Source of the DNA: a phage
Strand: one strand, 5' to 3'
DNA length: 64,000 bases
Sequence record: PZ452594.1
Shown here: positions 2,634 to 61,166 of the stretch, piece after piece
Layout of the letters: every line of letters starts with the position of its first letter
How positions within the stretch are numbered: position 1 is the first letter of the stretch
Notes under the pieces: generated by a model
Told to the model about the DNA's origin: nothing
Seen by the model: the letters and a program-made list of their open reading frames with translations, nothing else
Databases searched by the model: none
Made by a program: the position numbers and the translations under genes

Positions 2634-2968
2634 TTCATAATCACCAGATAAGCAGATTTAGCAGTTTCAACACGATAAATTTCGTGACGAAGTTTAGTTA
2701 TACTTTTAATAACAGAACTAATTATATTCTGCCCATCTTTAAAGCGGTTTTTCTTATCAATAAAAACTGCGCCAGTCATCTTTTTGTGAAGCTCAACCGG
2801 ATACTTCGTCACAATAATAGCATCATACACAGAAGGATGAATACTATTCACCAGAGTATCATTCATTAAAGTTATTCTAATGAACTGTGCTGTTTCAGAA
2901 TCAAGCGCTCTATGATCGCCAGTATCATTTTCAAGACAATTATCAATTATATCAGTTAAATTCATCAT
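2630..2968 (-). CDS. hypothetical protein (cd.1-like)
   Basis: 112-aa ORF, start overlaps next gene stop. Confidence 0.5.
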   Translation of the reverse strand: MMNLTDIIDNCLENDTGDHRALDSETAQFIRITLMNDTLVNSIHPSVYDAIIVTKYPVELHKKMTGAVFIDKKNRFKDGQNIISSVIKSITKLRHEIYRVETAKSAYLVIMK

Positions 2969-3201
2969 AGTACGCCATACACCCTTTGTGCTTCAACTAA
3001 TCCATCAAAATCTAATTTAAGATGCGATATTTGATCGCCATCACCTGGATTCACAATTACTAATACTGAACGAGGGGTTTCAGTAATAACACGAACCGAT
3101 GTTTCAGGAAATCGTTCAGAAACCTTATTTACTAATTCCTGTGCAAATAGTTTAACTTTTTCTTGGAATTCTTTAACAGTAATTGGTTTTTCACTTAGCA
3201 T
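2965..3201 (-). CDS. hypothetical protein
   Basis: 78-aa ORF with SD GAGGAAAACAAA before ATG. Confidence 0.5.
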   Translation of the reverse strand: MLSEKPITVKEFQEKVKLFAQELVNKVSERFPETSVRVITETPRSVLVIVNPGDGDQISHLKLDFDGLVEAQRVYGVL

Positions 3202-3231
3202 TTTGTTTTCCTCATTTGTTTTGGTAGAGCT

Positions 3232-3261
3232 ATAATATCACAACTCTACCGTAAAGTAAAC
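3232..3261 (-). promoter_or_regulatory. T4-type early promoter (GTTTAC-18-TATTAT)
   Basis: GTTTAC at 3256-3261 (minus), -10 at 3232-3237, just upstream of the 2965-3201 ORF. Confidence 0.5.
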
Positions 3262-3263
3262 TA

Positions 3264-3539
3264 TTAAATTGCTTTGAATTCTGATGTCTGTGATTCAAAG
3301 CGAATATCGCCTTTGATGACTAGCTCAGCATCAAGACCGAATACGACAATGATATGCGCTGAACCTGGATACAACGTGATGGCAACAGAATCCACCTGGT
3401 CTGGAAGCAAAGTATTCAATACATGAGTCACTTGAGCATGGATTCGAAGCTCAGCTGCATTATCAAGTTTTTCAAACATATTATTAGCGATAATTTGGCT
3501 AAACACTACTTCTACGATTTTAGAGTAAGTCGGAAACAT
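3264..3539 (-). CDS. hypothetical protein
   Basis: 91-aa ORF. Confidence 0.5.
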   Translation of the reverse strand: MFPTYSKIVEVVFSQIIANNMFEKLDNAAELRIHAQVTHVLNTLLPDQVDSVAITLYPGSAHIIVVFGLDAELVIKGDIRFESQTSEFKAI

Positions 3540-3541
3540 AT

Positions 3542-3734
3542 TTACCTCACATAATTTTCTTCAAGCCAATCAATAACATCCAAAGCGTTATCAAAAGTTG
3601 CGCCATCTACTTTGTCTTCTGTTTCATAATCAAGAACATCTAGGCCTACTCTTCCGTCAACAATAGGCCATAGACAAAATAGATATTTCTTTTCTTTTTC
3701 AATTTTATCACAAAGACGATAAATCTTTTCTAGG

Positions 3735-6368: not shown

Positions 6369-7956
<1,588 letters not shown>

Positions 7957-7983
7957 AATAAAATGGGCCTTGCGGCCCACTCC

Positions 7984-9162
7984 TTAAAAATATTTTTTAA
8001 AACTCATCATAACTTTATCATCAACATCATTATCAATCTGTGCTACAAGGTAAGATGACAGTTCTACTTCTTGCGGTGCAGATTGAACATTATCAGAATT
8101 AAGATATTCACGAATCCAAGGATATGGATGTTTAACCGGAGCATCGGCAATTGGGCATGGAAGACCGCACTGTTTCATACGAGATACAGTTAAGTAATCA
8201 ATAAAGCTCCACATGCTATTTGTATTTAATCCAGGAACATCGCCATCTTTAAATAAATGAACTGCCCAGTCTTTTTCTTGACGGTTAACTTCCATGAAAA
8301 TATCAACTGCTTCTTGTTCACACTCTTGGGCGATTTTAACCCATTCATCACCATCAGTGCCAAGTTGAAGTTGACGAATAATATATTGGGTGCCTTTAAG
8401 GTGAAGCTGCTCATCACGAGCAATGAACTTCATAATCTTGGCATTACCTTCCATGATTTCCATGTTCTTATGGAAGTTAAAGGTACATGCGAAAGATACA
8501 TAAAAACGAATAGCTTCCAATGCGTTGATTACATGCAAACAGAGGTAAAGAGATTTCATTAGCTCATGCTTCCAATATGTCTCATGCTCAATAGCATCTT
8601 CAATAACGTCTTCGTCTGCATTAATTTCTTTTTGGTATTCGATATCAGCTTTAGCGTTTTCCCAATAACGAGTTTTAATCAGAACATCATCATAATAGCG
8701 TCCAATAGATTCGGCTCGTTTCATAATAGCTTCATCTAATACAATTTCATCAAATACCTTCGATGGATCAGTATAAAGATTTCGCATGATATGAGTATAT
8801 GAACGACTGTGAATAGTTTCACTAAAAGTCCATGTAGCAACCCATGTATCAAGGCTTGGGTCTGAAATTAATGACATAAGTACAGCAGATGGCGCGCGAC
8901 CCTGAATGCTATCTAAAAGTGATTGATACTTCAAGTTGTTAGTAAAAATATTTTGCTGATACTGAGGAAGCTTATTAAACTGTGCAGCATCCATCATCAA
9001 GTTTACTTCTTCAGGACGCCAGAAAAAACTGATCTGCCGCTCAATGAGTTCTTCAAATACTCGATGTCGTTGAATATCATATCGAGCTAAACCTAATCCA
9101 GAACCAAAGAACATCGGTTCATTCAAAACATCAACTGGATTTGTATTAAAAACTGTACTCAT
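7984..9162 (-). CDS. nrdB: ribonucleotide reductase small subunit, uninterrupted
   Basis: 392-aa continuous ORF; di-iron ligand E/H pattern; no intron in the reading frame. Confidence 0.93.
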   Translation of the reverse strand: MSTVFNTNPVDVLNEPMFFGSGLGLARYDIQRHRVFEELIERQISFFWRPEEVNLMMDAAQFNKLPQYQQNIFTNNLKYQSLLDSIQGRAPSAVLMSLISDPSLDTWVATWTFSETIHSRSYTHIMRNLYTDPSKVFDEIVLDEAIMKRAESIGRYYDDVLIKTRYWENAKADIEYQKEINADEDVIEDAIEHETYWKHELMKSLYLCLHVINALEAIRFYVSFACTFNFHKNMEIMEGNAKIMKFIARDEQLHLKGTQYIIRQLQLGTDGDEWVKIAQECEQEAVDIFMEVNRQEKDWAVHLFKDGDVPGLNTNSMWSFIDYLTVSRMKQCGLPCPIADAPVKHPYPWIREYLNSDNVQSAPQEVELSSYLVAQIDNDVDDKVMMSFKKYF

Positions 9163-9857
9163 TTAGAATCCTTAAATTTACATTTATCATAATGCCATCT
9201 TAAAGCATTGCCTTTATTAACTTTCTTACCACAGTGCGGGCAAGGTGGATACTCTGCTCCTTGTTTAGTTCTCAAAGAAATCAAATCACGGGTTTCTTTA
9301 GTATGAGGAACATCTCTTGTCGGAGAAATTGTACCATACATCGGATTAAGCACGCCGACTTTAGCAGCAGCTATATTCTTTTTAGCTTCTTCAGTTTTAG
9401 GCTTTCTCATCTTTTTCTTAGTTTCTTCGCTTTTAGCCCTTCCTTTGGTTGCCGCCGATATTTTGTGTTTGGTTTCTTCTGTTAAACGCAGACCTGTTTT
9501 CGCTTTTGACATTTTCAGTCTCGTTTCTTCAGAAATGACCGTACCTTTGCGAAATTGTGAATTTAACTTCTTTGCATGGGCATATATTTTAGAATGAACT
9601 TTATAATGACGTTTCTTAGTTCCTTTCATATTGCACATCATGAAAAATGCGAATATAACAGATTTTACCGGATAAATCTTTGATAAAATAGCATGCGCTA
9701 TAAAATGTTCTCTAGCTGTTAATTCAACTAAATTTTCTTTATCATCAGAACCTCCCATGCATTTAGGGACTATATGATGTGTCTCTTTATATTCGGATAA
9801 AGGTTCCCGAGCCTGAGCTCGGGAAATTAGGTCGTTATAGATTTTTTGATAATTCAT
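9159..9857 (-). mobile_element. mobE: free-standing HNH homing endonuclease with NUMOD3-type repeats (mobE-like)
   Basis: 232 aa; HNH core HHIVPKCMGGSDDKENLVELTAREHFIAHA; three repeats of the form SEETR/KxKxS..K; sits between nrdA and nrdB. Confidence 0.8.
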
Positions 9858-12121
9858 TACAATTTACACGCTGCACAATCGTCGGCTTTTGGAGTTTCTA
9901 TTTCATAATCATCAGTACCAGAACCATCGCGGGTATTATGATAATAGAAATTTTTTCCGCCAAAATACCAAAAATACAAAAGGTCATCAATCATTATTGA
10001 CATTGGAACCTTTCCTTTAGGGAAGATTTGGGGGTCATAGTATGTATTCGCTGAAGCTGATTGACATACCCATTTCAGCATAATAGCTACCTGCGTAAGA
10101 TAAGGTTTATTACCTTTCTTAGCTAATTTCCATGTATAATCATAGAGGTCTATGTTATGCTCAATATTGGGCACGACTTGATTAAAGGAGCCCTCTTTTG
10201 ATTCTTTAACAGAGACTGGTCCACGTGGAGGCTCGATACCGTTTGTACTGTTAGAAACTTGGGAAGATGACTCACATGGCATAAGTGCTGATAATGTGCT
10301 ATTACGGATGCCAAAGAGCTTAAGGTCTTCCCGCAGCGACGACCAGTCACAAACGTATTTTGGAGCTGCGATTTGGTCAATCTTTTTATTGTACCAGTCG
10401 ATAGGTAATTCGCCTCGAGACCAACGAGTGTCTGAATAATATTCGCAAGGTCCTTTTTCTTTGGCGATCTTAATGGATGCTTTAATGAGTCCATACTGTA
10501 ATCTCTCAAATAGTTCATGTGTTAAATCGTTAGCATCTTCATAAGAAGCAAAGTTACTTGCCAGCCAAGCTGCATAGTTAGTAACACCTACACCAAGGTT
10601 TCGACGCTTTTTAGCTTTTTCTGCTTCAGGAACTGGATATCCTTGGTAATCCAAAAGATTATCAAGAGCACGAACTTGAACTTCTGCTAATTCATTAATT
10701 TTATCTTGGTCTTGCCAATCGAAGTTATCCAGCACAAATGCAGATAACGTGCACAATCCAATTTCAGCATCAGGACTATTCACATCATTTGTTGGAATAG
10801 CAATTTCACAGCACAAGTTACTCTGACGAATAGGTGCCTTTTCACGAATAAACGGAGTGTAGTTATTCGTATTATCAATGAACTGCACATAAATCCTTGC
10901 TGTTCCTGAACGTTCAGTCATGAGCAATTCAAATAGTTCACGGGCTTTAATACGCTTTTTACGAATATTAGGGTCTTTTTCTGCTGCTTCGTATAATTCA
11001 CGGAAACGGTCTTGGTCTTTAAAATAAGAATAATAAAGCTCTCCACCCATTTCATGTGGACTGAACAAAGTAATGTAATCGTTCTTTCCAAAACGTTCCA
11101 TCATTAGATCATTCAGTTGAACACCATAATCCATATGACGAATGCGGTTTTCTTCTACGCCTTTGTTATTTTTTAAAACGAGAAGATTTTCAACTTCCAA
11201 ATGCCAAATAGGATAATAAGCAGTAGCAGCGCCGCCACGAATTCCACCCTGTGAGCATGATTTAACTGCAGTCTGAAAATGTTTCCAAAAAGGAATAACA
11301 CCAGTATGGCGTACTTCACCCATGCCAATCTTAGAACCTTCGGCACGAATCATACCAACGTTAATACCAATTCCAGCGCGTTTAGAGATATATTCAACAA
11401 TTGAAGCGGAAGCCTTATTGATAGACTTTAATGAATCACCTGCCTCAATAACAACACATGAACTAAACTGTCGAGTCGGAGTACGACAACCAGCCATAAT
11501 AGGAGTTGGCAATGAAATCTGTCGAGTAGATACTGCTTCATAAAAACGGATAACATGTTTTAATCTATCAACAGGTTCATCTTGATGCAGTGCCATTCCA
11601 ATAGTCATAAATGCAAACTGTGGAGTTTCATAAATTTGACCAGTGGTTTTATCTTTGACTAGATATTTTTCTTTTAATTGCATCGCCCCGGAATAAGTAA
11701 ATTCCATATCCCGCTCGTGCTTAATTTTTGATTCTAAAAATGTAATTTCTTCTGCTGAATATTTTGACAATAATTCAGGGTCATATTTACCTGCATTTAC
11801 ACAATAAGAAATATGGTCAATAAATGAACGTGGTTCATACTGCCCATAAACATGCTTACGAAGAGAGAACATTAAACAGCGAGCGGCTACATATTGGTAA
11901 TCAGGCTCTTCAACTGAAATAGAATTTGCAGCAGCCTTAATGACAATAGTCTGAATATCATCAGTTGTCATTCCATCACGGAGATAAGATTTAATATTTT
12001 CATATAATTCATAAGGATCTACTGATGTTCCCTCAGCTGCCCAAGATAAAACTTTAATAATTTTTTGTGGGTCAAAGCTCTGAGAAACACCACTACTTTT
12101 GATAACATTAATTAATTGCAT
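9857..12121 (-). CDS. nrdA: ribonucleotide reductase large subunit
   Basis: 754 aa; class I RNR catalytic-site motifs (NLCCEI, PCESSS) and C-terminal CxxC redox pair. Confidence 0.95.
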   Translation of the reverse strand: MQLINVIKSSGVSQSFDPQKIIKVLSWAAEGTSVDPYELYENIKSYLRDGMTTDDIQTIVIKAAANSISVEEPDYQYVAARCLMFSLRKHVYGQYEPRSFIDHISYCVNAGKYDPELLSKYSAEEITFLESKIKHERDMEFTYSGAMQLKEKYLVKDKTTGQIYETPQFAFMTIGMALHQDEPVDRLKHVIRFYEAVSTRQISLPTPIMAGCRTPTRQFSSCVVIEAGDSLKSINKASASIVEYISKRAGIGINVGMIRAEGSKIGMGEVRHTGVIPFWKHFQTAVKSCSQGGIRGGAATAYYPIWHLEVENLLVLKNNKGVEENRIRHMDYGVQLNDLMMERFGKNDYITLFSPHEMGGELYYSYFKDQDRFRELYEAAEKDPNIRKKRIKARELFELLMTERSGTARIYVQFIDNTNNYTPFIREKAPIRQSNLCCEIAIPTNDVNSPDAEIGLCTLSAFVLDNFDWQDQDKINELAEVQVRALDNLLDYQGYPVPEAEKAKKRRNLGVGVTNYAAWLASNFASYEDANDLTHELFERLQYGLIKASIKIAKEKGPCEYYSDTRWSRGELPIDWYNKKIDQIAAPKYVCDWSSLREDLKLFGIRNSTLSALMPCESSSQVSNSTNGIEPPRGPVSVKESKEGSFNQVVPNIEHNIDLYDYTWKLAKKGNKPYLTQVAIMLKWVCQSASANTYYDPQIFPKGKVPMSIMIDDLLYFWYFGGKNFYYHNTRDGSGTDDYEIETPKADDCAACKL

Positions 12122-12438
12122 AAGTCCTCAACTTGAAAATCGTCTTTAAACAATCGGTTAACTATATGAGCTATTATATCACCATGACACGGCTTTGGTT
12201 TACATGTGCATCCTAGCCTCATTCCACGTAAAGGCTCTAAATGTGCTTTAGTTATTTCTCCGGATTTAATTCGACGTATAAAATCTTTTTTGAATAATTC
12301 AATGGCAGCCTCCCGGCTGCCAGCATCTTTACCGACGTAATTTCCCCAAAATGTACCACGGTGAATATTAACATCAAAGTCGGATTTGTATTTATTCACT
12401 ACCCGGCATAGACGGCCCACGCTGGAATAATTCGTCAT
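12112..12438 (-). CDS. hypothetical protein (nrdA.1-like)
   Basis: 108-aa ORF overlapping nrdA start. Confidence 0.5.
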
Positions 12439-12667
12439 ATTGTTTTTCCGTTAATACAGTAATATCATAGTAACAATCGGAAGAAGTTTTAACTGTGGAA
12501 ATTTTATTATCAAAATACTCACGAGTCATTTTATGAGTATAGTATTTTTTACCATAAATGGTAATAGGCTGTTCTGGTCCTGGAACTTCTAACTCGCTTG
12601 GGTTAGGAAGTGTAAAAAGAACAACGCCAGAAGTATCTTTAAATCGTAAAATCATATATCCTCGCAA
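12392..12667 (-). CDS. hypothetical protein (nrdA.2-like)
   Basis: 91-aa ORF. Confidence 0.5.
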
Positions 12668-12675
12668 TAATAAAA

Positions 12676-13536
12676 TTACACCGCCATCTTTCCTTTAATA
12701 GGAGGGTGTGATTCATAGTTGTTAAGAACAAAATTATGCGGCTTTGCGAATTGACTCAACCAAAATACCTGCGATTCTGTGTCCCATTCATCAAATTCAT
12801 CTGGAAATTTTAATTGCAATTCGCATAAATCCATAGGTTCACGACGTAAAATTTCTTTACATTGTTCTACGTGATTCATATAGATATGAGTATTACCGCC
12901 AGAAAATATCAAATCTCCCGGAATAAGATTACACATCTTAGCTACAATATGAACTAACGTAGCATATGATGCAATATTAAATGGAAGACCGAGGAAAACA
13001 TCTACCGAACGTTGATACCACTGGAGGTCAAGGTATCCGTTACGAACATTAAATTGATAGAACATATGACAAGGCGGTAATGCCATATATTTAAGTTCAG
13101 CTGGATTCCATGCAGAAACAATTTGACGCCTATCATTTGGCAGTTTTTTAATACGATCAATAACTTCTATAATTTGGTCTACACCGCCAAAATCACGCCA
13201 CTGTTTTCCATAAATTGGACCAAGTTCACCGCTATGGTATCCTAAATCTTTTGCTTGATTTTCGTAATTTTCATCCCAGACTGTTTTGCCTTGGATTAAC
13301 GAATCATGCTGAATTAATCGTAAATCATTGACATTTGTGCTTCCTGACAAAAACCATATTAACTCAGCAATGCAAGCTTTCCAGGCGAGCTTTTTAGTTG
13401 TTACTGCAGGAAAACCTTTGGTTAAATCCCAACGCAATTTAGTACCAAACAAAGCAATTGTTCCTGTGCCTGTTCGGTCATCGGTTTCATAACCATTTTC
13501 AAAAATGTCTTTAATTAAATCTTGGTATTGTTTCAT
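12676..13536 (-). CDS. td: thymidylate synthase, uninterrupted
   Basis: 286 aa; ThyA active-site region with catalytic Cys (PPCH); no intron. Confidence 0.95.
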
Positions 13537-13948: not shown

Positions 13949-14771
<823 letters not shown>

Positions 14772-41010: not shown

Positions 41011-41040
41011 ATTATACCACATCCTTGTGGTAAAGTAAAC
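41011..41040 (-). promoter_or_regulatory. T4-type early promoter (GTTTAC-18-TATAAT)
   Basis: GTTTAC 41035-41040 and TATAAT 41011-41016; spacer contains the inverted repeat CCACA...TGTGG. Confidence 0.6.
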
Positions 41041-42860
41041 TACTGGCTCATCCATTCTTTGCGAAGGTCAGCATTATCTCCCATGAGCATTTCAAAAAGC
41101 TCTTTCCAGTTCTCAGGAAGTTTAACAACATCATATACTGGGTTTTGAATCATCTCACGATATTCAGATTTTTCTAAAGAGCCAAGTCCCTTAATATAAC
41201 GGATGCTATGTTTAGGTAGAGCATCTTTAGCACTCTCATATTCAGCGACTGTATAAAACCATTCTTGTTTTTTACCGACCTGAGCGATGATTACAGGAGT
41301 TTTGACAAAGCGAATTCTTCCTTGTTCAAACAGTTCTGGCCAATTACTAAAAAATCCGAGCAGAGAAGGATAAATGCTTCCTAGACCATCATGGTCAGCA
41401 TCAGTCATAATAGCAATATTATGATAATTCAAGTTTTCAGCTTTTTCACCGAGAACTAGACCAGTGATTGCGCAAATATCAAATAGTTCTTTGTTTTTAA
41501 GCATATCTGCATAAGACATACCCCAACTGTTGAGAACTTTACCACGTAATGGATAACCACCATGAAGTTCTTTATCACGAACATCAATAAGATATCCGAT
41601 AGCAGAATCACCCTCAGTCAAGAAAAGAGTAGTGTCAGCATCTTTACCACAAAGATTCGCTTTGATATGTTTATGAACCTTAGCTTTAGAAGCCTTTTTA
41701 GCTGCTTTAGTTTCTGCTGCTTTTTCTGCCGCCAATTTACGAGCCAAAGCAGCTTCGATAATCGGCATTAGAATTGCTTCATTATTTAGAATAGCACGTG
41801 AAATCTTTTTAGCATCAAGCTGAATATGACTACGGATTTCACCAAATGGAGAAGTCAAACGCTCTTTAGTTTGAGAATCAAATCGCATGTTTTTCATATC
41901 ACGAACAAACATAACGATAGTCAAACATTCTTTGACACGCGCTTTAGTCACATCAATTTTGAACTTACGTTTGATTTGTGGAATAAGGTCTTCACAAATA
42001 TCATCCATAACACAGTCAATGTGATGGCCACCATTCTTAGTGTGGATGTTATTCACATAAGTTAATTGACGAAATCCATCCGGTGAACGACCAACCGCAA
42101 TAGAACAATTTTCTTGTTCTTGAACGATAGCATGCTCATCATATTGGCGTGCATATTTCTTAAAATTGCCCTGAACCTTTTTACCATTAAAGGTAAATTG
42201 AATATCAGGATAAACAACAGCAAGTGTCTGGAGACGATCTAGTGTAATGTCAAGATAAACTTGGGACAGCTCATTAGTTTCAAATGACATAAAATCAGGA
42301 ATGAAAGTAACACGAGTTCCTTTCCATTTTCCTGGAATAGTTTCCCATGATTTATTTTCCATGCCATTTGAACAACGAACTACAATATTATTTTGACCAT
42401 CGCCAGTTTCACCGACAAACATCACAGAAAAAATGTTAGTTAAACTAGAACCAACACCATTCATACCACCGGTGACACGTTCTTTATCATCACCAAAGTT
42501 ACCACCCGCTTTTGGAATAGTCCAAGCAGCAACTGGACCAGGAATTTCTTCACCGGTAGGTGTTTTAACCATCGCTTGTGGAATACCACGACCGTTATCT
42601 TCAACTGTTACTTGATTGTTTTTGATGGTAACATTAATTTTATTCGCGAATTTAAACTTAGTACGAATACCTTCATCTACTGAGTTATCGATAATTTCAT
42701 CAATAAGCTTAACAAGACCAGGTACATACTGAACACTTTCCCATTTACCAAACAGAAAGCGCTCATGCATTTCATTAGCAGAAGAGCCAATGTACATGCC
42801 ACTACGCTTTTTGATATGTTCAATATCGCTCAGAATTTTAATTTCATTCTTAATCATCAC
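41040..42860 (-). CDS. 39: topoisomerase II large subunit (GyrB-like), single unsplit ORF
   Basis: 606-aa continuous ORF; GHKL ATPase N-terminus and TOPRIM-like region (LTEGDSA). Confidence 0.92.
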   Translation of the reverse strand: MMIKNEIKILSDIEHIKKRSGMYIGSSANEMHERFLFGKWESVQYVPGLVKLIDEIIDNSVDEGIRTKFKFANKINVTIKNNQVTVEDNGRGIPQAMVKTPTGEEIPGPVAAWTIPKAGGNFGDDKERVTGGMNGVGSSLTNIFSVMFVGETGDGQNNIVVRCSNGMENKSWETIPGKWKGTRVTFIPDFMSFETNELSQVYLDITLDRLQTLAVVYPDIQFTFNGKKVQGNFKKYARQYDEHAIVQEQENCSIAVGRSPDGFRQLTYVNNIHTKNGGHHIDCVMDDICEDLIPQIKRKFKIDVTKARVKECLTIVMFVRDMKNMRFDSQTKERLTSPFGEIRSHIQLDAKKISRAILNNEAILMPIIEAALARKLAAEKAAETKAAKKASKAKVHKHIKANLCGKDADTTLFLTEGDSAIGYLIDVRDKELHGGYPLRGKVLNSWGMSYADMLKNKELFDICAITGLVLGEKAENLNYHNIAIMTDADHDGLGSIYPSLLGFFSNWPELFEQGRIRFVKTPVIIAQVGKKQEWFYTVAEYESAKDALPKHSIRYIKGLGSLEKSEYREMIQNPVYDVVKLPENWKELFEMLMGDNADLRKEWMSQ

Positions 42861-58721: not shown

Positions 58722-59084
58722 TTAAAAGAATTTAAATTTTTTCTTTGACCTTTTATTAAATGCATCTTGTAGTTGCATTGTAATACATTTTTCTACATGA
58801 GGAGCTAACTCAGCTTTTCTTTCTTGGTCAAGAACAGCAAAGTCCATTACAACCTTTCCATTAACCCAATCTAATTTTGTCACATACACAATGTGTGTAG
58901 AACCATCTTCTAGTTTAATGACAATCTCCTGGATAACATTTTCCATGGCAGATTTAATTATCTTAAGAGATTCATTAAAAAGACGTTCTTTTCTTTCTTC
59001 TTCCCCCTCCGAAGAGGGGGATTCATCGATAATTTCTAGATCTAAATCTAAATCATCTTTATTCATTAAATTCTTCCATATCAC
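58722..59084 (-). CDS. 40: gp40 head-assembly accessory protein
   Basis: 120-aa ORF between 41 and uvsX. Confidence 0.6.
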   Translation of the reverse strand: MIWKNLMNKDDLDLDLEIIDESPSSEGEEERKERLFNESLKIIKSAMENVIQEIVIKLEDGSTHIVYVTKLDWVNGKVVMDFAVLDQERKAELAPHVEKCITMQLQDAFNKRSKKKFKFF

Positions 59085-60240
59085 TTAGCTGATCTAGGTC
59101 AGTTTCTAAATCAGCTGCTGATTTACTTTTACTTTCTGAGGATTTAAATTTTTCAACTTTTGAGTTAATTAATTCATCAACTTCCGCTTCAACAATTTCA
59201 TTACTATCAATAGCACCTAACTGATAAGCACGCTTAATAGCATCACGGAATGGTTGATGCTTAAATAAAGGACCCCAGAATGTAGTGCAGTTGGTATCTT
59301 TTGCACGCCAAGATTTTTCTTCGCGAATCATCTCGCCGGTTTCTTCATCAAGAAATTCACGAGCATACCAACCATTCTTAGGTTTTACTACAAATCCTAA
59401 TTCTAGAGCCATATCTAACAATCCAGAATAAGGATCGATACCGCCGTCAAATTTAACATCAATAAAGAATTTACTTTTTTCTTTAACTGTACGAGATTTT
59501 TCTACATTTAGAACAAATTGATACCCCTGAAGATCAGAACCATCTTTAATCTGACGCTTACCGATAATGAATACAGTATCAGCCGAATACATTACACCTG
59601 TACCGCCTGTCATTACGGTTTTGCTAAACATTTCAATTGTTTCAATTGTATGGTTAACCGCAACACATGGAATATTTTTAATGCTAAAATAAGGAGTAAC
59701 AATACGGAATAATGACTTCAGTGATTTAGCACGAGTCATATCTGCCACAGATTTTTCATTCAAGGCATCTTCCGTTTCTTTCTTAGAAGCCATATTACCG
59801 ATTGAGTCGATGAATACAATAACTTTTTCACCGCGCTCAATAGCTTCAAGCTGATTCACCATATCAATTTTCAGCTGTTCAACTGACTGAATTGGCGTAT
59901 GAATTACTCGTTCCGGGTCAACTCCCATGGATCGCAAATAAGCTGGAGTAATACCAAATTCGCTATCATAGAATAGACAAACCGCGTCAGGATATTTGTT
60001 CAAATACGCCGCAACCATAGTCAAAGACATATTTGATTTAAAGTGTTTAGAAGGCCCTGCGAAAATAGTTAAACCAGACTGCATACCGCCATCAATCGCA
60101 CCAGAAATAGCGATATTAAGCATTGGGATTTTTGTACGGATTACATCCTTTTCATTAAAGAATTTAGATGTAGTCAGTTCAGCAGTCATTTTAGAAGTGG
60201 AAGCTTTAATCAAACGGGATTTTAAATCTGCAATAGACAT
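59059..60240 (-). CDS. uvsX: UvsX recombinase (RecA-like)
   Basis: 393 aa; Walker A GPSKHFKS and RecA-fold motifs. Confidence 0.93.
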   Translation of the reverse strand: MSIADLKSRLIKASTSKMTAELTTSKFFNEKDVIRTKIPMLNIAISGAIDGGMQSGLTIFAGPSKHFKSNMSLTMVAAYLNKYPDAVCLFYDSEFGITPAYLRSMGVDPERVIHTPIQSVEQLKIDMVNQLEAIERGEKVIVFIDSIGNMASKKETEDALNEKSVADMTRAKSLKSLFRIVTPYFSIKNIPCVAVNHTIETIEMFSKTVMTGGTGVMYSADTVFIIGKRQIKDGSDLQGYQFVLNVEKSRTVKEKSKFFIDVKFDGGIDPYSGLLDMALELGFVVKPKNGWYAREFLDEETGEMIREEKSWRAKDTNCTTFWGPLFKHQPFRDAIKRAYQLGAIDSNEIVEAEVDELINSKVEKFKSSESKSKSAADLETDLDQLSDMEEFNE

Positions 60241-60317: not shown

Positions 60318-61166
60318 TTAATCAACTGCTATTGGATGAATAGCATTAAACTTATGAAATGCTTCTGATTTTTCTTTACGCGAAACACACATGCGAAGAA
60401 CCTTTAATGGCTCATCTTCTTCACCCAACGATTTTCGTTTTTCAATATTAGAAGTTTTCCAACGAGCTTGCTCTGGAAACTCTCTGTTGATTTGCTCAAG
60501 CGCTCTATTATGTTTAGAATTACTACGAATTGAACTGCACCCGCCAGGAGCTTGTGCTTTTCCAGATACAACCAGATATTTGAACAAGGCCAAATGCGGA
60601 TAACCTTGATTAATTAAATTGAGAAATGCATACATATCTTCGCACAAATCAATTTTTCCATACCCAATTTGTTCTGTCGTAAGTTTTCCAAGGTCATACC
60701 ATGTATTCGTGAATCCATATGAATTTTCACGATAATTACCCCAAGATGAAGTAATTTTAAAAATTGGTAGACGAGCATGGCCATGATAATACCCACAATC
60801 CATGGCATCCTCAACATATTGAATCAATTCATAGAACTGTTCACGGGTTAATTGATTGACTTTATCTACACAGCGACGATCATCTCTTTTTCGCATTGAG
60901 CTCATACGAATCGTAGTATCATCGTCAATCATCCAGATTCGTTGACCTGCATACATATCAGTAATTGCTTTACGAGTACCGGCAATTCCATTTACGTCAT
61001 CAGGAATAGTTATAATTTTAGCTCTAGACCCATAGGCATCATAATAAGCTTTTTCTTCATGTTCACGCACTACAATATGGGGTTCATAATCAGTCGGAAA
61101 CATATCAAGGGCAGAAACTGCCCCGACACGCTGATAACTTGGAATTACGAATTGAATCATTTCCAC
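60318..61166 (-). CDS. putative DNA-modifying glycosyltransferase (non-T4 type, DxD motif)
   Basis: 282-aa ORF at the locus where T4 carries beta-gt; contains WMIDDDTT. Confidence 0.55.
   Translation of the reverse strand: MEMIQFVIPSYQRVGAVSALDMFPTDYEPHIVVREHEEKAYYDAYGSRAKIITIPDDVNGIAGTRKAITDMYAGQRIWMIDDDTTIRMSSMRKRDDRRCVDKVNQLTREQFYELIQYVEDAMDCGYYHGHARLPIFKITSSWGNYRENSYGFTNTWYDLGKLTTEQIGYGKIDLCEDMYAFLNLINQGYPHLALFKYLVVSGKAQAPGGCSSIRSNSKHNRALEQINREFPEQARWKTSNIEKRKSLGEEDEPLKVLRMCVSRKEKSEAFHKFNAIHPIAVD

Follow-up and report, generated by a model that had tools for sequence, protein, structure and literature searches.

The T4 mobE allele and an intronless nrdB in the T2-like nrd region of a T-even phage

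How does a T-even phage come to carry the homing endonuclease gene of T4 between nrdA and nrdB, together with an nrdB gene that lacks the T4 group I intron? This question is raised by a 64,000-nucleotide stretch of phage DNA (sequence record PZ452594.1; hereafter the window), in which three genes lie end to end:

9857-12121, minus strand: nrdA, large subunit of the aerobic ribonucleotide reductase (754 aa)
9159-9857, minus strand: mobE, free-standing HNH homing (nicking) endonuclease gene, T4 allele (232 aa)
7984-9162, minus strand: nrdB, ribonucleotide reductase small subunit, an uninterrupted ORF (392 aa)

The nrdA product contains the Pfam domains ATP-cone, Ribonuc_red_lgN and Ribonuc_red_lgC (E 4e-135), and the gene can be aligned with nrdA of T4, T2 and T6; the nrdB product contains Ribonuc_red_sm (E 2.8e-36). 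A sequence-only reading of this DNA had put a 232-aa ORF precisely between the two reductase genes, and its coordinates and lengths proved exact: the ORF takes up the nrdA-nrdB gap entirely. As read from the sequence, the mobE ATG has one base in common with the nrdA stop codon (TAATGA), and the mobE TGA overlaps the nrdB ATG (ATGA). The same nrdA/mobE arrangement has been reported for T4 (PMC2988022). Two plus-strand ORFs within mobE (83 aa, 9234-9485; 50 aa, 9445-9597) were set aside as presumably arising from the A-rich sequence that encodes the lysine repeats (AT skew -0.33).

By sequence, the ORF of 232 aa represents the T4 allele of the homing endonuclease gene mobE, in a T-even (Tequatrovirus) phage that is otherwise T2-like in this region. 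It had previously been called mobE-like, and the alignments sharpen that reading. Over its full length (699/699 nt) the DNA matches 12 modern T4-group records (10 of T4, plus RB55 and RB59) at 99.4% identity, and nucleotide and protein alignments agree on four substitutions relative to T4, of which two are synonymous and two produce I30V and R32K, leaving 230 of 232 amino acids identical to T4 MobE. Identity of mobE to ECO4 (NC_054911) is 97.6% and to Mosigvirus mogra (MN850579) 99.0%, and the ORF matches PHROG 655, “homing endonuclease” (E 3e-65). In the old T4 reference (AF158101/NC_000866), the gene is broken up into mobE (141 aa) and nrdB.1 (83 aa) by two extra bases, which are absent from the 12 later records and from the window. 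For annotation, the ORF should be named mobE at its full 232 aa, and the split mobE/nrdB.1 naming should not be propagated.

The MobE protein contains the following motifs:

9693-9797, minus strand: HNH catalytic motif, residues 21-55 (EYKETHHIVPKCMGGSDDKENLVELTAREHFIAH), with H27/H28, N42 and H51/H55
9333-9542, minus strand: NUMOD3 lysine-rich repeat region, residues ~106-175, a presumed DNA-binding linker module
9180-9242, minus strand: putative CCHC zinc knuckle, C206-x2-C209-x12-H222-x3-C226, C-terminal

An HNH core and three NUMOD3-like repeats had been recognized in the ORF beforehand, and both pass their Pfam cut-offs: HNH (PF01844) scored 23.3 bits against 21.4 over residues 21-44, and NUMOD3 (PF07460) 46 bits against 20.4, with residues 106-122 as the best stretch and three stretches at a relaxed threshold. 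The lysine-rich repeats arguably number four or five; Pfam scores three of them as NUMOD3. A PDB sequence search with MobE returned no close solved relative and one weak match, between residues 24-55 and the HNH domain of the group II intron maturase 6me0 (E 0.046). A scan of IMG/VR returned distant relatives only (28-58% identity), so it was unfit for surveying the nick-site allele in close relatives. Alignment of the window MobE with 14 of the distant relatives (28-39% identity) revealed no loss of HNH catalytic residues, since H27, H28, N42, H51 and H55 are all present and invariant in 15/15 sequences. All four CCHC residues occur in 12/15 (the window MobE and 11 of the 14 relatives) and are also kept in the MobE of T4, T6 and ECO4. 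Pfam zinc-finger matches to this region were sub-threshold only; the spacing of the four residues suggests a zinc knuckle of a DNA-binding domain, with putative zinc binding.

These alignments bear on whether the gene still encodes a working endonuclease. Once fixed, homing endonuclease genes often decay, as T4 I-TevIII has done next door, and mobE might be decaying or have been inactivated recently, and kept only because its deletion would take away the promoter and ribosome-binding site of nrdB, which lie in its 3′ end. The embedded promoter has indeed been argued to select against mobE deletion (PMC2790892), and both amino acid differences from T4 fall within the HNH motif. However, both are conservative and lie at variable positions (V30 also occurs in ECO4, and K at residue 32 in many distant relatives), all 232 codons stand in an intact frame with every invariant HNH and CCHC residue in place, and just 4 changes in 699 nt separate the gene from the functional T4 copy; we therefore consider decay very improbable. 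Even less credible, in our opinion, is that another phage nuclease makes the nick and that MobE, as a DNA-binding protein, regulates or targets it. This caveat goes back to Wilson & Edgell, and attempts to obtain MobE nuclease activity in vitro have never succeeded, T4 MobE included (PMC2790892). Yet the HNH motif is complete and invariant across distant relatives, deletion of residues 33-62 of T4 MobE abolished nicking, and the related HNH homing enzyme I-HmuI is a demonstrated nickase (PMC2790892 and its discussion). We infer that the window copy of this endonuclease is active, and likewise infer the order of historical events given below.

T4 MobE is known to nick mobE-less nrdB in a strand-specific manner and to show super-Mendelian inheritance in mixed infection; the nick in T2 nrdB was mapped in vivo to nt 122-126, and a polymorphism at codon 42 was likewise described (PMC2790892). 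The corresponding target in the window is:

9028-9067, minus strand: counterpart of the MobE nick site, nrdB nt 96-135, T4-type sequence

Nucleotides 91-140 of nrdB are identical to those of T4 and ECO4, and the nick-site region (nt 96-135) differs from T2 at about 17 positions, including codon 42, which is CGG at 9037-9039 and AAG in T2. The window's own nrdB is presumably nick-resistant through this T4-type sequence. Strict linkage of the T4-type nick-site allele to mobE was considered and rejected, because the allele also occurs without mobE in 215Ecol030PP, which has the intron, and in Manna and U5, both of which carry hef.

Farther into nrdB, two features distinguish the window from T4:

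8560-8670, minus strand: nrdB hypervariable segment, about nt 495-600, T2-class allele
8486-8487, minus strand: empty group I intron site in nrdB (intron of 598 bp in T4, 1091 bp in KAW3E185)

The gene is 1179 nt long, the same as the intronless nrdB of T2, with which it is colinear; ECO4 nrdB is likewise. The 598-bp intron of T4 is absent exactly after position 8486. At an E-value threshold, Rfam detected Intron_gpI in a T4 control (35.7 bits, E 5.5e-7) and gave no more than a chance-level match in window positions 7984-9900 (E 0.83). A further Rfam search of the whole window at the gathering threshold returned no match, but it also missed the intron of the T4 control, and this negative was discarded. 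The earlier description of nrdB as a continuous 392-aa ORF without a group I intron thus stands, both on colinearity with T2 and on a search with a positive control, and no intron-like structure was found inside nrdB within the range searched. The variable segment of the window is 12 nt longer than that of T4 and T6, and its alleles fall into three classes, one shared by the window and T2, one by T4 and T6, and one found in ECO4; the best database match of nrdB as a whole is only 96.1%. The td gene is intronless, as in T2. The proposal that the mobile-element content is mosaic therefore holds in some detail: a T4-type mobE cassette and nrdB start (~140 nt) are combined with a T2-class variable segment and a td gene that has no intron.

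The intron site lies about 550 nt beyond the MobE nick. Most likely, the mobE cassette would have entered on a co-conversion tract too short to reach the intron site, ending 5′ of it, so that no intron came with it. Crosses of T4 with T2 have yielded progeny that were mobE+ I-TevIII-, their recombination points falling within nt 1-189 of nrdB (PMC2790892). The flanks are 95-99% identical to T4, so that the edges of any conversion tract in the window genome cannot be placed, and nt 1-140 of nrdB are marked as T4-type only by comparison with T2. All four combinations of mobE and intron exist in nature, namely both (T4), mobE only (the window, ECO4, mogra and T6), intron without mobE (215Ecol030PP) and neither (T2).

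Conversely, the full T4 arrangement of mobE and intron could be ancestral, with the intron lost later through recombination with the intronless nrdB of a co-infecting phage or by precise deletion. Both intron states coexist among carriers of T4-type mobE (present in T4, ELT1 and KAW3E185; absent from ECO4 and mogra), the 95-99% identity to T4 extends well past the cassette on both sides, and a lost T4 intron could not be restored, since its I-TevIII is defective and it has no homing of its own (PMC2790892). On the other hand, just 5′ of the intron site nrdB is T2-class: it exceeds T4 by 12 nt there and shares only 65-71% identity with it. Because this segment adjoins the intron site, loss would require that at least about 200 nt of exon be replaced as well. 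Such a loss would just as much be an exchange with a T2-like nrdB; both scenarios end in the same product and differ in the direction of transfer only. We regard intron loss as unlikely, though it is the strongest competitor of entry on a short tract.

For the short-tract entry of mobE, a parallel is offered by Mosigvirus mogra, whose copy delimits the T4-type segment:

9035-9880, minus strand: T4-type cassette as set by the mogra copy (last ~24-35 nt of nrdA, mobE, nrdB nt 1-128)

Inside these limits, mogra shares 98-100% identity with both the window and T4; outside them it is 60-85% identical to these two and 95-100% to RB69. Its T4-type tract ends at nrdB nt 128, 2 nt past the nick positions 122-126 of T2, and short mobE tracts therefore occur in nature. 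With its end at the nick site, the tract resembles a footprint left in nature by homing from one genus to another. We suggest, tentatively, that the T4-type mobE cassette (the final ~24-35 nt of nrdA, mobE and nrdB nt 1-128/140) could be an autonomous unit that at present spreads among T-even phages, and even intergenerically, free of the nrdB intron. If the window copy arrived as in mogra, these genomes would be natural records of essentially one-sided MobE-initiated repair, with the repair tract running from the nick towards mobE, which would bear on how a single-strand nick drives homing. The match between cassette junction and mapped nick site is the sole part of this work that could interest specialists in homing, and it concerns mogra and not the window.

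Expression signals known from T4 were also sought in and around mobE. The clearest is:

9804-9825, minus strand: stem-loop in the 5′ end of mobE, with a 9-bp stem and a UCAG loop, followed by CCUUUAU

Its predicted RNA fold has an energy of -16.7 kcal/mol (z = -3.5), and its sequence is identical to that of T4, where the hairpin is a weak intrinsic terminator with ~30-50% termination (PMC2790892). The window hairpin is thus the counterpart of the T4 terminator, whose function is known from T4. A consensus terminator scan passed over it on account of its short T run. A scan for sigma-70 consensus promoters yielded as many sites as shuffled sequence, with no excess. In T4, nrdA and mobE are co-transcribed, and a middle promoter of nrdB lies inside the 3′ end of mobE (PMC2790892); by analogy, mobE of the window is expected to depend on promoters upstream of nrdA. 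Positions 9023-9557, which cover the 3′ 400 nt of mobE and nt 1-140 of nrdB, show zero mismatches to T4, so that the nrdB middle promoter is retained. The MotA-box pattern TGCTTYA-N11-13-TANNNT had 9 sites in the window against 2 expected, none of them inside mobE; pattern search thus did not place the exact promoter position within this T4-identical stretch. By eye, near-matches were seen at about 9328-9352 (TGCTTAA-N12-TACAAT) and at 9186-9209 (AATGCTTTA-N9-TATGAT), the latter being the counterpart of “potential” promoter elements annotated in X04140.

If the mechanism established by the T4 experiments can be carried over to the 99%-identical window copy, mobE would have no promoter of its own and would be transcribed from the nrdA promoters, its translation being coupled to that of nrdA at the UAAUGA overlap. 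The hairpin terminator, about 30 nt into the coding region, would dampen mobE, and the middle promoter inside its 3′ end would re-supply nrdB with transcripts. Once a rival nrdB had been nicked, repair from the mobE-carrying genome would copy mobE and flanking DNA into the rival, and the carrier's nrdB would be spared by its T4-type polymorphisms in nt ~96-135, including CGG at codon 42. Taken as a whole, a T4 mobE allele in a T2-like nrd region, working by the T4-derived mechanism and acquired on a short tract, is in our judgement a highly probable explanation of the locus.

The closest known system is T4 MobE (Wilson & Edgell 2009, PMC2790892), which is encoded by the same gene in the same place, overlapping nrdA and nrdB as in the window, with the terminator hairpin and next to the same target-site allele of nrdB; unlike in T4, nrdB of the window lacks both the group I intron and any remnant of I-TevIII, and it contains the T2-class variable segment. 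The combination of mobE with an intronless nrdB is real but ordinary: it is already known from ECO4, mogra, T6 (with its own mobE allele) and the T4 x T2 progeny (PMC2790892), and the window adds one genome to this class. ECO4 and mogra have the same architecture of nrdA, a 699-bp mobE and a continuous nrdB, but ECO4 differs from the window in its third class of variable segment and a td intron with I-TevI, and mogra belongs to another genus with an RB69-like backbone. I-TevIII is, like MobE, an HNH-family homing endonuclease that targets nrdB, active in RB3 and defective in T4, but it is intron-encoded and its site of action is the point of intron insertion, about 550 nt away from where MobE nicks; the window has neither its gene nor the intron. 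T6 MobE (213 aa; about 100 records carry the T6-type allele) occupies the same position next to an nrdB that is also intronless, and shares the N-terminal HNH and the C-terminal 80 residues. Its central third (residues ~56-150) is replaced and 19 aa shorter, which leaves 77% aa identity to the window protein; it diverges in the NUMOD3 repeat segment, and its nick-site allele differs as well (nrdB codon 42 is AAA, with neighbouring codons changed). Finally, the same nrdA-nrdB slot is filled in U5 (AY262133) and Salmonella phage Manna by Hef, an unrelated free-standing endonuclease of about 530-545 aa that is not of the mob type; both phages share the T4-like nrdB 5′ region with the window, but their nrdB contains the intron.

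The window is T-even phage (Tequatrovirus) DNA, and the gene order around mobE was the same as in the annotated T4, T2 and T6 records. The best match in the phage collection reached at most 97.3% identity over 5.3 kb around mobE and at most 96.4% over the first 25 kb. The coordinates and lengths given by the sequence-only reading were all exact, and the genes of this region are as follows.

6369-7529, minus strand, rnlA
7546-7980, minus strand, denA (GIY-YIG)
7984-9162, minus strand, nrdB, 392 aa
9159-9857, minus strand, 232-aa ORF (mobE)
9857-12121, minus strand, nrdA, 754 aa
12112-12438, minus strand, nrdA.1
12392-12667, minus strand, nrdA.2
12676-13536, minus strand, td, an intronless, continuous 286-aa ORF
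13949-14530, minus strand, frd

The 232-aa ORF had been placed exactly between nrdA and nrdB, and indeed occupied the entire gap: its start ATG has one base in common with the nrdA stop codon (TAATGA), and its stop TGA overlaps the nrdB start ATG (ATGA). Judged by its sequence, this ORF, previously described as mobE-like, is the T4 allele of mobE. It was 99.4% identical across all 699 nt to 12 modern T4-group records (10 of T4, RB55 and RB59), with four differences from T4, namely two synonymous changes, I30V and R32K. Only 20 of the 131 mobE-matching records carried the T4-type allele over at least 80% of the gene length, and most of the others carried a T6-type allele, in which the central third is replaced. 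In the old T4 reference (AF158101/NC_000866; locus L001, 2846-3546), two extra bases, A and C, which fall after window positions 9420 and 9503, break up the reading frame, leaving a 141-aa “mobE” and an 83-aa “nrdB.1”. Since a single 699-bp ORF is read through in the window and in the 12 later T4-group records, this split probably arose from a sequencing error in the old record.

Pfam detected an HNH domain at residues 21-44 (23.3 bits; curated cut-off, 21.4) and NUMOD3 (46 bits; curated cut-off, 20.4), the latter in three stretches at a relaxed threshold, in agreement with the HNH core and three repeats noted earlier. PHROG 655 (“homing endonuclease”) also matched, with an E-value of 3e-65. 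When the window MobE was aligned with 14 IMG/VR relatives of 28-39% identity, H27, H28, P31, G36, N42, H51 and H55 were invariant in all 15 sequences, indicating that the catalytic HNH residues have not been lost. A C-terminal motif, C206-x2-C209-x12-H222-x3-C226, was present in 12 of the 15 and represents a putative zinc knuckle; Pfam zinc-finger scores for it were sub-threshold only. A PDB sequence search found no close solved structure. By each feature open to in silico testing, the element belongs to the T4 MobE family.

The sequence-only reading had also described nrdB as continuous and free of a group I intron, which was confirmed. The gene is a single ORF equal in length to T2 nrdB and aligned with it without gaps, and the 598-bp T4 intron and the 1091-bp intron of the relative KAW3E185, which contains a 270-aa ORF, both map exactly after window position 8486. 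Rfam searching at the gathering threshold was uninformative, because the T4 control intron was also missed. At an E-value threshold the control was detected (Intron_gpI, 35.7 bits, E 5.5e-7), whereas no intron was found in window 7984-9900, where the only match was at chance level (E 0.83).

The first ~140 nt of nrdB were ~76% identical to T2 versus 99-100% to T4, and the variable segment (~8560-8670, nt ~495-600) was of the T2 class, which exceeds the T4/T6 class by 12 nt. The segment exists in at least three allele classes that do not align with one another (window/T2, T4/T6 and ECO4, NC_054911), and the hypervariable stretch adjoins the intron insertion site on its 5′ side. For nrdB as a whole, the top database match was 96.1%. 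A T4-type mobE and nrdB 5′ end, a T2-class variable segment and an intronless td together uphold the proposal of mosaic mobile-element content.

The nick site of MobE was mapped in T2 to nrdB nt 122-126. In the window, nt 91-140 were the same as in T4 and ECO4 and showed ~17 differences from T2, and codon 42 is CGG versus AAG in T2. Polymorphism of this class has been proposed to shield mobE carriers from self-nicking (PMC2790892). The 65-nt T4-type nick-site sequence was found in only 27 phage records, mostly with T4-type mobE. It was also found in 215Ecol030PP, which has the intron, no mobE and an nrdA-nrdB spacer of only 51 bp, and in Manna and U5, where hef occupies the mobE slot and the intron is present; because these three phages lack mobE, the linkage of this allele to mobE is strong but not absolute. 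All four combinations of mobE and intron occur in nature (T4, T2, the window and 215Ecol030PP).

In the Mosigvirus mogra (MN850579), the rnlA-denA-nrdB-nrdA backbone shared 60-85% identity with the window and 95-100% with RB69, and the T4-type mobE showed 99% identity. The T4-like tract (locus L086 of mogra, 2877-3734, equivalent to window 9035-9880) begins ~35 nt ahead of the mobE start codon and runs on to nrdB nt 128, with the first mismatch at nt 129, so that it ends within a few bases of the MobE nick. This tract resembles a natural footprint left by intergeneric homing, and it delimits the mobile unit. Given the 99% identity, the window mobE would work by the mechanism established in T4. 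The cassette most likely entered together with a co-conversion tract too short to reach the intron site. Progeny of just this kind (mobE+ I-TevIII-), with junctions within the first 189 nt of nrdB, were obtained by Wilson and Edgell (PMC2790892). Alternatively, an intron-bearing nrdB body may later have been replaced by a T2-like one, which would give the same end product as entry on a short tract. The combination of mobE with intronless nrdB is already known: ECO4 and mogra resemble the window in this respect, T6 has an intronless nrdB but its own mobE allele, and experimental recombinants have the combination as well. As a whole, the earlier interpretation (a mobE-like HNH endonuclease beside intronless nrdB) is supported.

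Across the 64 kb, an HMM built for the mob-type HNH domain matched mobE alone, and a pattern search of the same 64 kb found no canonical GIY-YIG motif. The td gene aligned with intronless T2 td, whereas td of T4, T6 and ECO4 carries a group I intron/I-TevI. Two further loci differ from T4.

41040-42860, gene 39, a single 606-aa GyrB-like ORF (HATPase_c, DNA_gyraseB, TOPRIM_C)
59059-60240, uvsX
60318-61166, TAGT-family glycosyltransferase, 282 aa
61157-61897, gene 42

T4 has gene 39, mobA and gene 60 at the first site, whereas the window has neither mobA nor the gene 60 split; the single ORF indicates that the topoisomerase subunit is unsplit. Between uvsX and gene 42, T4 carries segA and beta-gt, whereas the window carries the TAGT glycosyltransferase and no seg gene, an arrangement that resembles the T2/T6-type glucosyltransferase locus. 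The single mob gene, intronless td and unsplit gene 39 point to a T2-like, endonuclease-poor background that carries mobE as a T4-type cassette.

The 3′ end of nrdA (9881-10040) has a pattern of its own, partly common to ECO4 and RB69-like phages. A substitution cluster relative to T4, T2 and T6 alters several C-terminal NrdA residues here, for example DDLLYFWYFGGKN in the window versus DDMLYGWYYGIKN in T4, and could be a remnant of an earlier conversion at an endonuclease hotspot.

In T4, mobE lacks its own promoter and is co-transcribed with nrdA, a hairpin just within mobE stops 30-50% of transcripts, and the nrdB middle promoter sits in the 3′ part of mobE (Wilson and Edgell, PMC2790892). 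The window has the same hairpin as T4 (9804-9825; 9-bp stem, UCAG loop, -16.7 kcal/mol, z = -3.5). The position of the nrdB middle promoter was not found by pattern search; 9023-9557 (the last 400 nt of mobE plus nrdB nt 1-140) showed zero mismatches to T4, and therefore any promoter that T4 has there is also present in the window. The MotA-box-like pattern TGCTTYA-N11-13-TANNNT occurred at nine sites in window 1-64000 versus 2.0 expected from shuffles, an excess consistent with T4-type middle promoters scattered across the window.
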